DNA of 53,447 nt. It comes from Phycisphaerae bacterium (GTDB lineage Bacteria; Planctomycetota; Phycisphaerae; Sedimentisphaerales; Anaerohalosphaeraceae). The stretch is from assembly GCA_018433925.1 (NCBI GenBank), contig JAHDQI010000037.1:1-53447 (forward strand). The letters are read 5' to 3'. A program made the translations under genes and the position numbers. The notes beneath the pieces were generated by a model. The model saw nothing but the letters and a program-made list of their open reading frames with translations, ran no database searches and was not told the origin of the DNA. Shown piece by piece: positions 10,088 through 33,397 of the stretch (the stretch's first letter is position 1; the number at the start of each line of letters is the position of its first letter).

Positions 10088-11848
10088 TTAGGGCAGCGGC
10101 TCCGTTAATGCCGTCGATTCCAGCCAATCGACAACGAGGATCGAAAGATCCGCAAGGTCAAAAGAACAGTCATCGTTAATGTCACCACTCAAAGGCGTAT
10201 ATCCCGGTACGCCCTTGGCGGCCTCACAAGGATCTGCATACACCTGAATCGTAACGGCATCGGAAGCTTCTAATTCTCCGTCATTGACAGTAAGCATCAG
10301 CGTATAGCTTCCGACTTGATCAATCGTCACGGTCGTGGCCTCTGCTGTCGGGCTGTTGATCACGACATTGGGATCCTCGGGTGCTTCTTCCCACAGGACC
10401 GTATAGGGACCAGGAACACCGTCATCGGTTATCGTCGGGGCCATCTGCACATCCACGGCACCCTCGGTCAGCCACGTGTAAACCGTATCCCCGGCATCTA
10501 CATCCGGCGGGAAATTGCTTAACTTCGTTTCAAACGACCAGACATACCCGGTAATTGTATTCGGATCATCTATGCCGGAAGGCACTCCGCCTCCTTTATC
10601 AAGGGCCTCATCGATACGCCAGAAGTACTTACCATCTTTGTTCAAGGACGCCGTTGCGGCCCCGGTATCTCCATTGGCAGGAATCTCTTCGCGATAATAA
10701 AGCGCAGGGTCACTCGACACATTCTGATCTTCACTCCTATAAACGTAATACTTCAGAACATTCGGATTGGGTATTGTACTATTGGGATCGCCTGGATCTA
10801 CTGTCAATCCTTTATCCCATCCCAGATTCACCGTAACAGTGTAGGTTCCGGTTGAAATCCCAACTTCAGTTGCGCTATCCTTAGGCATTGGATTCGAGGC
10901 ACTTCTACCCACATTGCACAGAAAATCAATCGGACTCAGGGCCGTATCCAAAATACGCACTTCATCGAGATATCCTTGATATCGGTTAAAATGTCCTTTA
11001 TTCACGAGTTCTCGGTAAAGCACCCAACCCCCGCCATGCCACGTGGAGTATATGTCATCATCAGCACCGAGGGCCGTATCCGGACTGCCTGATAAAGTCA
11101 TATCTACAGAGGCAATAACCTCGGTATCCCCACCATCCGTGATATTGGTTAGATACACCGTAAAGGTTGTTCCATCGCTTACCGCCGCGACATGATACCA
11201 CTTGCCCGCCTCAATAACATTGGCTGCTGATTGTACACTATGTTTAATGAGGGATACATCGACGAAAAAACTCTCAATCGACCATGCTGCCGTATCCGAA
11301 TCCGCATCGTGCACACGAAGTGCAAATGAAGAAGCTGACGGGTCTGCAGTACAATACTGATACGCATCACGACACACCAGAGTACCGACTTTACCAGCAT
11401 TCGACGGATCTTGTGAGCTGTCCGGATTAAACAACGCTTCCACTGTGAATTGAGCCGGTTCAATAAGCTCCGCATCAATGCCAGTTGGGTTGCTTCCGTA
11501 TACTGAATAAGCGTCAGCGGTTGACTGGGTATTTATACCTGGTTTTGTTCCGTAATTTTTAATACTCAGTTTATTCATCTGGCTCGTTTGGGGTACCATA
11601 GAAAAGGGGATATTGCCGCGATGCCAAAACGAACTATTGTTCGGAGTATCCGACCAGGCCTGTAAATGATTTCCATTTCCCGAAACGTCGTCAATGTCCT
11701 GAGAATAGCGGTAATCATCATATTCCGTGTAAATCAGCGTATCTGCAGTTCCCTCATCGGCTTTCCAATAAGCCACGGTAGCTGCATATACCGGAAAGCT
11801 CGAAACCAACACCAGGAACACCATTGATTTCCATACAAAAAGTCTCAT
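10088..11848 (-). CDS. Exported LamG-domain protein, 'head A + short tail' (LamG + FN3-like + PKD-like + dockerin-like)
   Basis: Start reassigned to ATG 11848, with GGAGG 7 nt upstream. It gives MRLFVWKSMVFLVLVSSFPVYA|ATVAYW, parallel to the start of 28964-33397. LamG motifs are DVSGNGNHLQAWSD and LDEVRILDTALSPIDF. PKD-like region runs from PPDVDAGDTVYTW through TITDDGVPGPYTVLW. C-terminal segment is GDINDDCSFDLADLSILVVDWL. Confidence 0.85.
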   Translation of the reverse strand: MRLFVWKSMVFLVLVSSFPVYAATVAYWKADEGTADTLIYTEYDDYRYSQDIDDVSGNGNHLQAWSDTPNNSSFWHRGNIPFSMVPQTSQMNKLSIKNYGTKPGINTQSTADAYSVYGSNPTGIDAELIEPAQFTVEALFNPDSSQDPSNAGKVGTLVCRDAYQYCTADPSASSFALRVHDADSDTAAWSIESFFVDVSLIKHSVQSAANVIEAGKWYHVAAVSDGTTFTVYLTNITDGGDTEVIASVDMTLSGSPDTALGADDDIYSTWHGGGWVLYRELVNKGHFNRYQGYLDEVRILDTALSPIDFLCNVGRSASNPMPKDSATEVGISTGTYTVTVNLGWDKGLTVDPGDPNSTIPNPNVLKYYVYRSEDQNVSSDPALYYREEIPANGDTGAATASLNKDGKYFWRIDEALDKGGGVPSGIDDPNTITGYVWSFETKLSNFPPDVDAGDTVYTWLTEGAVDVQMAPTITDDGVPGPYTVLWEEAPEDPNVVINSPTAEATTVTIDQVGSYTLMLTVNDGELEASDAVTIQVYADPCEAAKGVPGYTPLSGDINDDCSFDLADLSILVVDWLESTALTEPLP

Positions 11849-12052
11849 TTTTCTACCTCCGCATTTCATTTTATTTAACTTCGCATGATAACCTGTTCAC
11901 CGTATCCGTAAAGGGCACACCTCACACACAAACGATTTAAAATAGAATTCTCTACACGATCCGCTTATTTGTCAGGAAGGGAGTTTTTCTTCGAATAGTC
12001 ATCCCAATCGCATTATTTCGTTTGGAGTTCATAAATATCTCATTCTCTTACA

Positions 12053-31900: not shown

Positions 31901-32443
31901 GGCGGCTCCATTGGACATTCCATTCCTGCCATATAACTCTACATACATCTTTTGGTCCTTGCCGATCCGGAAATCAGTTACCCAGGTATGATAACGAAAA
32001 TAATCAGGATCGGTCTTCCAGGGCTCAATAGGAATGGTCCGGCACGGCTCAACCTCTCGGTTCAGCCCGCTTTGAGAAGCGATGTACCAGTCATCCACAA
32101 AAAGCATTTTTCGGCCTGCCACATCAATCGGTTCAGTTGGATCTGGCGGAGCAACAATTGTTTGCTTGCGAATGCCTCGAATGAGCAGACCCGTGTCTTG
32201 ACCGTCCTCTCTAACTTCCCGTATCCGCACTTCATAATCACCGTCAGGCCAATTGGTAATATCGATATTTTCCTCCTGCAATCCCTGGGAAGCATAAACC
32301 GTCACTTGCATCGGAGATACCGGAGAGGTACCAGTTACAGGGTCGCGAAATGTTAATTCAACTCGGATATCGTCATCATCGAAGCATTGAAAAGCCAGCA
32401 TTGCAGTATTCTTATTCAAATAGGCCGATCGAACAGATTCCAC
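28964..32443 (-). repeat. Long-tail cassette copy 2 (about 3.48 kb), paralogous to 24031-27504
   Basis: See copy 1. The junction with head A lies between the FLCN codons and VESVRS (V codon at 32441-32443). Confidence 0.85.
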
Positions 32444-33397
32444 CTTAAGACGCTCACTTAACAACAACACTTCATTACATAGAAAATGGCTCGGGCCCAA
32501 AGCACCATCCGAAATCCGCACTTCGTCGATCAGTCCCTGGTATCGATTCGTATGGACTTTATTCACCAATTCACGGTAAAATACCCAACTCCCACCGTGC
32601 CAGGTGGACGCGATGTCATGATCCGTACTCAGGGTCGTATCCGGACTGCCGGATGATGTTATATCCAGGGCGGCTGCCACCTCTGTTTCCCCTCCCTCAG
32701 TAATATTGGTCAAATACAGCGTCAAGGTAATTCCATCACTTACGACTGCCGCATGATACCACGTGCCTGTTAGCCCTGTCGGATCCGTACTGTAATCAAA
32801 TCCCTGTATGGCGTTAGAAGCAGACTGAACCACATGTTTATAGCCGGATACATCGACGAAAAATGCCTCCACCGACAAATTGCTCATTTTGACGCGAAGC
32901 ACAAAGGCGGCGGCCCCCGGCTCTGCCGTACAAATATTATAAGCATCCCGATTTACAATGGTACCGTACTCGCCGGCTCCCGGGGGATCCTGTACGTTTC
33001 CCGGATTAAAAATCGCCTCCACTGTAAATTGAGCCGGAGCAATCCGTTCCGCGTCAATGCCGGAGGGCATGCTGTAGGCCGAGTAGGTAAGCGTTCCGGG
33101 CTTGGTCCCCCAGTTTTGCATACTGAACTGATTCATCCGTCTCGTTTGCGGAACAACGGAAAAAGGCAGATTATTTCGAAACCAAAACGAACTGTTATTC
33201 GGAGCATCCGACCAAACTTTTACATGGTTTCCATTTCCTGAAACATCCGGGATGTCCTCCGAATAATAATACCCATCCTGTTCGGTCGGAACCACTGTAT
33301 TGGCGGGGCCTGCATCAAATGTCCAATAAGCCACCGTCGCGGCATACAACGGAAAACCTGCCGCTAACACCCCCCAAACTATTGATTTAAACGTCAT
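28964..33397 (-). CDS. Giant exported protein, 'head A + long tail': LamG head plus the same ~1,160-aa core as 24031-28848
   Basis: GAGAGGA lies upstream of ATG 33397. Signal peptide MTFKSIVWGVLAAGFPLYA|ATVAYW. LamG motifs are DVSGNGNHVKVWSD and IDEVRISDGALGPSHF. The core from VESVRSAYLN to the C-terminal GDLTEDCRVTLEDMVVLAANWLVCTAPACD and GDLTEDCKVNIRDLAVLAENWLACTVPECD is colinear with the neighbouring gene. Confidence 0.85.
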   Translation of the reverse strand: MTFKSIVWGVLAAGFPLYAATVAYWTFDAGPANTVVPTEQDGYYYSEDIPDVSGNGNHVKVWSDAPNNSSFWFRNNLPFSVVPQTRRMNQFSMQNWGTKPGTLTYSAYSMPSGIDAERIAPAQFTVEAIFNPGNVQDPPGAGEYGTIVNRDAYNICTAEPGAAAFVLRVKMSNLSVEAFFVDVSGYKHVVQSASNAIQGFDYSTDPTGLTGTWYHAAVVSDGITLTLYLTNITEGGETEVAAALDITSSGSPDTTLSTDHDIASTWHGGSWVFYRELVNKVHTNRYQGLIDEVRISDGALGPSHFLCNEVLLLSERLKVESVRSAYLNKNTAMLAFQCFDDDDIRVELTFRDPVTGTSPVSPMQVTVYASQGLQEENIDITNWPDGDYEVRIREVREDGQDTGLLIRGIRKQTIVAPPDPTEPIDVAGRKMLFVDDWYIASQSGLNREVEPCRTIPIEPWKTDPDYFRYHTWVTDFRIGKDQKMYVELYGRNGMSNGAAQDELKYWVVSDDYENWDVAAEPEDRDYGYDMITFDKTKVKNLFLGTPSYRYYDPEEDGPVNLSQVSVYKVKPGLVLGDITIPYWCRIAVWERPNGEYLILTPEPIVRVKGEFEDNEIGQWQDANDNYGPEHLSRDGNTLRFYQTRNIPRNDPLRVYYDNILASRILVAWSSQDGVTWSPAYFEVPDECETFALQHYGVFVFDEEEHALELSYVRMYDQADQKLSADLAYSRDGILWNRFSQQPFLENGEFGSWNFGYSYFPESRTRLDNGREYFEPIFGINVLHFMFLTAYDRKDRSYITTDYYLNRFEGRLAGEGGIPDSEIWDWYGSSWDHIVDATKNMVITPALIKYRKDGWVRLGQATDTGMMTTKILSAGSKLNINAKTDPNGYILVEVLDQYGTDLPEYSGDSGALFAGDSVNSPLRWNDRSITDLPNQPVKLRITIYKGQLYSLNFGGYNNVIYVDADATGQNDGSGWADAFCDLQNALASAEYGDQIWVAEGVYKPTQDVNADLACYEAFELKNGVAVYGGFAGSETALSQRDYKNHETILSGDLAGDDGPNFTNNDENSRHIIIGDDTDAATILDGFTITGGRAGDAASPHNAGGGLIVWTTGSPTLRNCTFTGNSATTYGGAIYAGKSSMKIQSCRFEKNISRSGGAIRLQYSGDVEIDDCIFIENGGSTETIETRYGGAVSNWDADSPVISNSYFIGNQTTLSLTNVGYGGAIMMEPGTTAHIRNCVFNGNKAGRGGAIQLGANQFSDTQSSDIINCTFAGNAAMISGKGISGTSSGTAVVSVRNSILWDGNSEISYNSDLFSVEYSNVYGGWPGEGNVSLLPNFIDPEGADHVAGTEDDDYRLTIPSACIDSGNNAVVPANLLADIDGNNRISNTTVDMGAYEYGSTPFLGVCGDALHPIPPGDLTEDCRVTLEDMVVLAANWLVCTAPACDPIPPGDLTEDCKVNIRDLAVLAENWLACTVPECD

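Follow-up and report, generated by a model that had tools for sequence, protein, structure and literature searches.

Two head and two tail modules occur in all four combinations among secreted proteins of a planctomycetal glycan-utilisation locus

The stretch of DNA analysed here (the window) is the whole 53,447-nt stretch of contig JAHDQI010000037.1 from a Phycisphaerae bacterium (assembly GCA_018433925.1). Within positions 10088-33397 it carries four genes, P1 to P4, all on the minus strand, that encode exported proteins built from two N-terminal heads and two C-terminal tails. We denote the LamG-type head as A, the beta-helix-type head as B, the short tail as S, the long tail as L and the signal peptide as SP, so that P1 is A-S, P2 is B-S, P3 is B-L and P4 is A-L. 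The P1 open reading frame (ORF, 10088-11869) comprises head A (10913-11848) and the short tail (10088-10912), with a likely start at Met8, at position 11848, which corresponds to the database gene call of 586 aa. The P2 ORF (17017-19080) comprises head B (17728-19080) and the short tail (17017-17727). P3 (24031-28917) consists of head B (27505-28848), the long-tail core (25582-27504), a PMP-repeat beta-helix (24268-25581) and two dockerin-type segments (24031-24267); its probable start is Met24, at 28848, where the homology to P2 begins and where an earlier note on this DNA, made from its letters, had also placed it. In P4 (28964-33397), head A (32474-33397) is followed by a 10-aa linker, EVLLLSERLK (32444-32473), the long-tail core (30533-32443), the beta-helix (29198-30532) and two dockerin-type segments (28964-29197). 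An obvious signal peptide, read from the sequence, stands at the start of all four proteins as part of the head.

The earlier note had described two heads and two tails occurring in all four combinations, and the four blastp pairings reproduced this matrix at the coordinates given above. The A heads of P1 and P4 were 60% identical over 320 aa (E 2e-118), the B heads of P2 and P3 73% over 450 aa (E 0), the long tails of P3 and P4 72.7% over 1172 aa (E 0) and the short tails of P1 and P2 33% over 230 aa (E 7e-25); apart from the short dockerin-type segments, blastp found no other significant cross-similarity among P1-P4. At the nucleotide level, blastn gave identities of 66% for the A heads, 76% for the B heads and 78% for the long tails, while the short tails were too diverged to be detected.

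The switch from one partner to the other was as abrupt as the earlier note had claimed, and the junction motifs quoted there were seen in the protein alignments. In the extracted P3 gene, similarity to P2 stopped at nt 1703 and similarity to P4 began at nt 1708. Across this junction, the identity of P3 to P2 in 45-nt alignment windows was 82, 71, 58, 49, 38 and 31%, and that of P3 to P4 was 33, 20, 73, 69 and 73%; the identity of P4 to P1, measured in the same way, dropped from about 70% to about 40% at the FLCN motif. At each junction, the step from about 75% to about 35% nucleotide identity lay inside one 45-nt window. The pairwise nucleotide and protein alignments that had been proposed as a check thus gave significant similarities with sharp breaks at the junctions, not a gradual decay. 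A third type of tail, also recognised earlier, is carried by the mini protein P0 (114-893, plus strand), in which one head-B-type unit leads directly into a PEP-CTERM anchor (...AYDGNG...TTITA/IPEP, the slash marking the junction) scoring 25.1 bits against a cut-off of 20.7 (PF07589) and 17.2 against 16 (TIGR02595). P0 aligned with the end of the P3 head at 31% identity and, along its whole length, with N-terminal units of many head-B-type proteins at 30-35%.

Because the paralogues are just 66-78% identical in nucleotide sequence and their longest exact matches (18, 29 and 59 nt) all lie away from the junctions, it is hardly credible that one or more of the four genes, P3 above all, were mis-joined from similar repeats during metagenome assembly, even though paralogous repeats do lie within one contig and the B-L arrangement was seen in this window only. 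P3 differs from P2 and from P4 by 22-27% and is therefore no splice of these two, both of its halves are in frame with a dN/dS of about 0.2, and the A-S, A-L and B-S architectures were assembled independently in other samples.

To place the four genes among their relatives, which are in Phycisphaerae/Sedimentisphaerales, we compared them with the loci of relatives L001, L002, L003, L004 and L010 and with homologous proteins (P0010, P0061, P0121 and P0276). A related-locus search, which used a narrower alignment, found only three Planctomycetota loci in GTDB genomes. Full-length A-S orthologues of P1 were present in four other metagenome contigs (ENA) at 76, 68, 60 and 54% identity. The B-S architecture belongs to a widespread family whose members, 475-510 aa long, combine a single head-B unit with the short tail, are 36-46% identical to P2 and have the same junction (...AYGGDG...H/LLNPNPADGST). 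In L002 and L010, a regulator gene adjoins an operon comprising A-S, a pseudopilin, KDPG aldolase, PfkB, Nramp, BNR, IU_nuc_hydro and A-L; since both architectures lie in one operon there, A-S and A-L are conserved partners. L001 and L004 carry, in place of A-L, two genes 42 nt apart, one encoding head A with one dockerin segment (345 aa; L001 1420-2457, equal to L004 8921-9958) and the other a signal peptide and long tail with one dockerin segment (1156 aa; L001 1-1377, equal to L004 10001-13471). The L001 long tail is the nearest relative of that of P4, at 81% identity as compared with 72% between P3 and P4.

The relatives also bear on how the joins were made. Stand-alone long-tail proteins begin SP/..LLSERLE-(A/V)ESVRSAYLN, and the P4 linker EVLLLSERLK corresponds to their mature N-terminus. 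In P4, in L002 and in P0121, FLC(N/S) is followed by 2-3 residues and then by LLSERLE at the same place, and A-L with the fusion point of P4 was found in both L002 and P0121 of L010. As LLSERLE is kept right after the head in these three, a head with its own signal peptide appears to have replaced the signal peptide of a long-tail protein. In P3, the B-L join (...ITGK/RFE-VESVRS) lies 6-7 residues deeper into the long tail than that of P4 and shows no microhomology, which points to an independent illegitimate fusion and not to exchange at a common site.

The copies in the window are old and under purifying selection. The dS was 0.82 for head B (P2/P3), 0.74 for the long tail (P3/P4) and 1.32 for head A, and was saturated for the short tail, with a dN/dS of about 0.2 throughout all compared modules. 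The similar dS values of head B and the long tail fit one old event in which a tandem long-tail copy captured a copy of the P2 head.

In the relatives, by comparison, there is recent head-only exchange or conversion between paralogues that ends exactly at the junction. The heads of the A-S and A-L genes of L002 (10073-10987 and 18496-19410, 8 kb apart) were 96.4% identical over 915 nt without gaps, and the tract stopped at the last codon of F(V/M)CN. Between the A-S and A-dockerin genes of L001, the heads were 90% identical in nucleotide sequence overall and 98-100% over their last 480 nt. Within a genome, head A was 97% (L002) and 91% (L001) identical, as compared with 55-81% for orthologues of different genomes and 66% for the window's own pair; head A thus groups by genome and not by tail. 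The A-S genes of L001 (9500-12200) and L003 (9500-12222), from one assembly but in different contexts, form a mosaic in which the tails were 97-100% identical and the heads 40-90%, the change falling at the junction; identity of 97-100% also held for part of the pseudopilin gene upstream. Conversion tracts must stop where homology stops, and their sharp ends therefore need no special mechanism.

The earlier note had read the four genes as a cassette-like family, and its view of heads and tails as separate, recombined modules is borne out. A dedicated cassette or diversification system, in which heads (or tails) would be swapped actively and frequently to retarget effectors, as in Rhs/CDI toxins or antigenic-variation cassettes, is a different matter and seems to us very improbable. 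The presence of all four combinations in 23 kb, the sharp junctions, the recent head-only exchanges in relatives and the use of one head boundary with three tail types are what such a system would leave behind, but the copies in the window are old (dS 0.7-1.3) and under purifying selection. Furthermore, the A-L junction (FLCN-EV-LLLSERLK) and the B-L junction (ITGK-RFE) differ in position, the four junctions have no common linker, motif or nucleotide signal, and the longest exact matches lie elsewhere. In the window, neither a recombinase nor a reverse transcriptase was found, and the same holds for silent partial copies, toxin domains and immunity-like ORFs.

Polymorphic toxins (Rhs, CDI, MAFB) offer a formal parallel, since they too join a constant part to alternative parts at a sharp junction and recombine between paralogues. 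What varies in them is a small C-terminal toxin, next to which lies an immunity gene, and the junction has a conserved motif. In the present genes, in contrast, variation affects both ends, the tails comprise 235 aa and 1160 aa of glycan-related modules, and there is neither an immunity gene nor a junction motif; no toxin family was among the Pfam/NCBIfam matches, and the genes downstream are P3, PfkB and a pseudopilin gene.

The two heads are most readily understood as accessory modules. Head A matched Laminin_G_3 (PF13385) with 35.0 bits in P1, against a cut-off of 27.6, and with 26.7 bits, just under it, in P4; the same family is carried by head-A homologues. In a survey of homologues, head A precedes GH43, Ig, PI-PLC, FG-GAP or PEP-CTERM domains or stands alone, while in many proteins from metagenomes and Planctomycetota, head B, sometimes in a one-unit version, stands before LamG, discoidin, metallophosphatase, GH99 and peptidase domains. 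The survey of heads on other tails suggested in the earlier note thus found both heads in front of many other domains, and each of the modules is widespread among Planctomycetota and has many different partners. Head B has no Pfam or NCBIfam family of its own; it showed a weak match to Cthe_2159, a beta-helix carbohydrate-binding family, and P2 also a weak PKD match. Its homologues are named T5SS/PEP-CTERM-associated repeat proteins by JGI, and one of them, P0276 (38% identical to P2), matches the corresponding model, TIGR04393, at 27.8 bits against 23; likeness to this group extends to P0, which ends in PEP-CTERM, whereas P2, P3 and P0 themselves fall under the model. P0010, a protein with PF12951, aligned only to the long-tail beta-helix and not to head B. 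A literature search on the head-B repeat names returned nothing relevant, and neither did searches of PDB sequences with P1, P2 and P3 return anything useful. Both heads are, we infer, modules for glycan binding or targeting without catalytic function.

The short tail is a non-catalytic spacer ending in one dockerin-type segment, and consists of a beta-sandwich, a K319L-like PKD domain and that segment. The PKD family (PF22352) scored 28.0 bits in P1, against a cut-off of 27, and 18.6-19.4 bits, under the cut-off, in P2, whose short tail is homologous to that of P1 and to those of B-S proteins bearing PF22352. Of the domain families named for checking in the earlier note, Laminin_G_3 and a K319L-like PKD family were recovered, with P1 above cut-off, while head B gave no match to PF12951 and Dockerin_1 stayed below its threshold.

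The long tail runs from an Ig-like domain through a beta-propeller and a C-terminal beta-sandwich to a PMP-repeat right-handed beta-helix and two dockerin-type segments. The beta-helix part matched Chlam_PMP (23.3-34.3 bits against 20.6), POMP_repeat (29-31 against 15) and choice_anch_Q (27-31 against 25), and a 102-nt tandem repeat at 24043-24239 in P3 corresponds to its two dockerin segments. The core, taken as the first 643 aa of the tail (25582-27510 and 30533-32455), had 1774 representative relatives at E<=1e-3 and 77 at E<=1e-30 in an exhaustive profile search. Named members are from Planctomycetota and Sedimentisphaerales, and their names derive only from their other domains; the core was found alone behind a signal peptide (~650 aa), or behind LamG, GH20/84-like, GH115_C+CBM96 or 2xLamG+Dockerin_1.

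An AlphaFold2 model of the core built on a 36-sequence alignment (mean pLDDT 93.7, pTM 0.91) looks like a glycosidase-like protein with a confidently predicted five-bladed propeller. Its best Foldseek matches were five-bladed beta-propeller glycosidases of GH183 (8hhv), GH137 (5mui), GH32 (1uyp), GH43 type and GH159, with a probability of about 1, E values of 4e-8 to 1e-4 and about 10% sequence identity, and in the model a beta-sandwich lies C-terminal to the propeller as in GH32 and GH43. Unlike these enzymes, to which there is no sequence-level match, the core is not an established member of any CAZy family. D121 and D312 were invariant and D345 nearly invariant among 36 diverse sequences. 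The propeller may have glycosidase activity, and the core is a candidate for a new glycoside hydrolase family. The earlier description of binding heads on effector tails accordingly suits the long tail only, the short tail having no catalytic module.

These assignments could also be turned round, with the heads as the active parts (LamG glucanase-like, beta-helix lyase/hydrolase-like) or as export or attachment modules and the tails as carriers, and with the long-tail beta-helix, rather than the propeller, as a possible polysaccharide lyase feeding KDG kinase and KDPG aldolase. The LamG clan includes glucanases according to its Pfam description, head B weakly matches the beta-helix family Cthe_2159, the PfkB and KDPG aldolase genes of the operon suit a lyase-to-KDG route, and head-B-type units are tied to PEP-CTERM anchoring. 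We nevertheless regard such a reversal as unlikely, since the heads precede established catalytic domains (GH43, GH99, sialidase-like, peptidases), as accessory modules typically do, and since the two invariant aspartates and the nearly invariant third lie in the propeller core.

Ten dockerin-type EF-hand segments (GDxxxDCxV...DL...WL) were found in eight secreted proteins of the window, namely ORFs o966-2435 (aa 449) and o7553-9799 (aa 711), P1, P2, P3 (two), P4 (two), and ORFs o46360-48450 (aa 309, internal) and o49348-51273 (aa 610); a GH99 and a LamG-sialidase protein are among the carriers, and a segment may also sit internally or N-terminally. A profile of the ten segments matched the solved type I dockerins 1daq, 2mte and 2y3n (E 1.5e-5), in each case with both of the dockerin's segments. 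The segments of the window may anchor the proteins.

The surroundings in the window form a glycan-utilisation island, with three or four BNR sialidase-like proteins, GH127, GH51, GH130 and two GH99 proteins, a sialate esterase, NanM, GlcNAc 2-epimerase, SSF and Nramp-type transporters, KDPG aldolase, PfkB kinase, pseudopilin-like N_methyl/DUF1559 proteins and an XylR-like AraC-family regulator. An Rfam scan of the window found no RNA family. An operator-like element lies on the minus strand upstream of P1 (12089-12122), upstream of P2 (19331-19364) and at the head of the run comprising aldolase, GH127, P4, P3, PfkB, Nramp and GH51 (36822-36855), where it is divergent from the regulator gene (36888-38048, plus strand). 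The element has two direct repeats, CGCAWWWWGGTK, at 21-bp spacing, about 25 nt upstream of a CTATAAT box, in the layout CGCAWWWWGGTK-N9-CGCAWWWRGGTGT, and its three occurrences in the window compare with 0 in 100 shuffles. Since the promoters of P1, P2 and the P4-P3 run have this element in common, co-regulation of all four proteins is very probable.

Seven genes or operons of the closest relative, L001/L004, also have this element in front of them, among them the pseudopilin, A-S and A-dockerin/SP-L genes (L001 2635-2668, 6794-6827, 7046-7079, 8492-8525, 9710-9743 and 18422-18455; L004 13793-13826), and the same regulator adjoins the A-S gene in L002, L010 and L001. The regulator, with a periplasmic-binding-protein domain and HTH_18 in Pfam, is a candidate binder of the shared operator, and the element looks like the mark of a regulon of this adjacent AraC/XylR-type protein.

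Two other pairs of stand-alone and fused proteins were observed in the window. A BNR sialidase-like protein of 390 aa (44223-45395) is 41% identical to the fusion of LamG, dockerin segment and sialidase-like module at 46360-48450, and a GH99-like protein (6232-7548) is 29% identical to a GH99-like protein with an Ig-like domain and a dockerin segment (7553-9799). The last 9 kb (44001-53447), which contain DHDPS/NanA-like, sialidase-like, LamG, pseudopilin, GntR and PEP-CTERM genes, have a G+C content of about 0.55, up from about 0.45-0.49, and this part may be a separately acquired sialic-acid-type block.

Among described systems, the closest in kind are cellulosomal and other dockerin-bearing carbohydrate-active enzymes (CAZymes) of Clostridia and Ruminococcus, which are likewise secreted proteins with interchangeable binding, catalytic, Ig/PKD-like and dockerin modules, some of which paralogues share. 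The proteins described here differ from them in their Planctomycetota host, in a catalytic module of no curated family, in their unusual N-terminal heads and in their segments, which have a conserved Cys, stay under the Dockerin_1 threshold and are single in P1 and P2; neither cohesin nor scaffoldin was seen in the window. Within Planctomycetota the closest is the 'planctosome' proposal, in which cohesin and dockerin proteins of freshwater Phycisphaerae, with cohesins identified, form surface complexes that involve peptidases (Andrei et al. 2019, PMC6461901); secreted degradative Planctomycetota proteins with dockerin-type modules are common to both cases, while the proteins of the window are related to glycans and no cohesin is seen beside them there. 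LamG-headed glycosidases of Phycisphaerae are a further parallel, for example P0061 of Anaerohalosphaera lusitana (LamG + GH43, annotated as arabinoxylan arabinofuranohydrolase), in which a head A that matches about half of P1 at 38% identity lies in front of a five-bladed propeller glycosidase; the catalytic module of P0061 is GH43 (PF04616), whereas the long-tail core has no Pfam family. The organisation is therefore not without precedent, as the earlier note had supposed, but is the ordinary modular architecture of secreted, dockerin-bearing carbohydrate-active proteins, every module of which is found with many other partners. Tidy as the matrix is, it is what ordinary domain shuffling produces and not a new kind of genetic system.

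Taken together, we give a probability of roughly 0.7 to the reading that P1-P4 are secreted, modular products of a single glycan-utilisation regulon in a Planctomycetota bacterium and that their two-by-two arrangement came about by ordinary domain shuffling, with no programmed switch. B-S and A-S would be old architectures. A-L would have arisen when the LamG head took the place of the signal peptide of a stand-alone long-tail protein, and B-L when a tandem duplicate of the long-tail gene gained a copy of the P2 head at another, non-homologous junction, at about the time of duplication. The heads of paralogues in one genome would occasionally have been homogenised by gene conversion halting at the module boundary. 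Each head would thus serve in two settings, as part of a binder without catalytic function that is bound to the surface or to a complex (A-S, B-S) and as part of an enzyme (A-L, B-L).

Several observations weigh against this interpretation. No second example of B-L was found in word-indexed searches, in exhaustive HMMER searches or in a JGI metagenome search with the P3 junction peptide. When run with the full-length P3 protein, the word-indexed search also missed P2, P4 and the long-tail relatives of 62-74% identity that the exhaustive HMMER search later recovered; being blind to known relatives, its failure to find B-L is, on its own, weak evidence, and its negatives call for caution with long repetitive queries. 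L001/L004 has A and L as two genes though its long tail is the closest to that of P4, which means either a secondary fission or repeated fusion in the history of A-L.

On the side of function, P2, P3 and P0 gave no head-B match to TIGR04393 or PF12951 even at E<=10, and the long-tail core had no Pfam family even at E<=10, none in NCBIfam and no PDB sequence relative, including in a search with the 36-sequence profile. Its Foldseek matches had TM-scores of <=0.24, which are low because the query spans three domains and make this a fold-level match only. Pfam Dockerin_1 (PF00404) reached at best 11.6 bits (E 0.33, P3 C-terminus) against a cut-off of 22.9 and did not match P1 or P2 at all. P3 and P4 carry two segments each but P1 and P2 one each, and no cohesin family was among the Pfam matches of the window's ORFs. 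Glycan binding by the heads, hydrolysis by the propeller, anchoring through the segments and regulation by the AraC/XylR-type protein are putative roles.

A stronger version of our reading would see a matched-pair design, in which head-limited conversion keeps binder and enzyme on the same ligand, head B on both tails makes a second pair, and the core is a new five-bladed glycoside hydrolase family of about 1,800 members; we regard it as a doubtful, if possible, extension.

On the reading of ordinary shuffling within one regulon, the locus shows, in a clear and datable case, how modules are put together into the secreted glycan-degrading proteins of Planctomycetota, by fusion at a signal peptide cleavage site, by a tandem duplicate that captured a head and by head-only conversion. 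The large, unannotated beta-propeller family, very probably co-regulated with arabinofuranosidases, sialidase-like proteins and KDG-pathway genes, would be a good candidate for enzyme discovery, and this family, the concerted evolution limited to the heads and the regulon are all worth following up.

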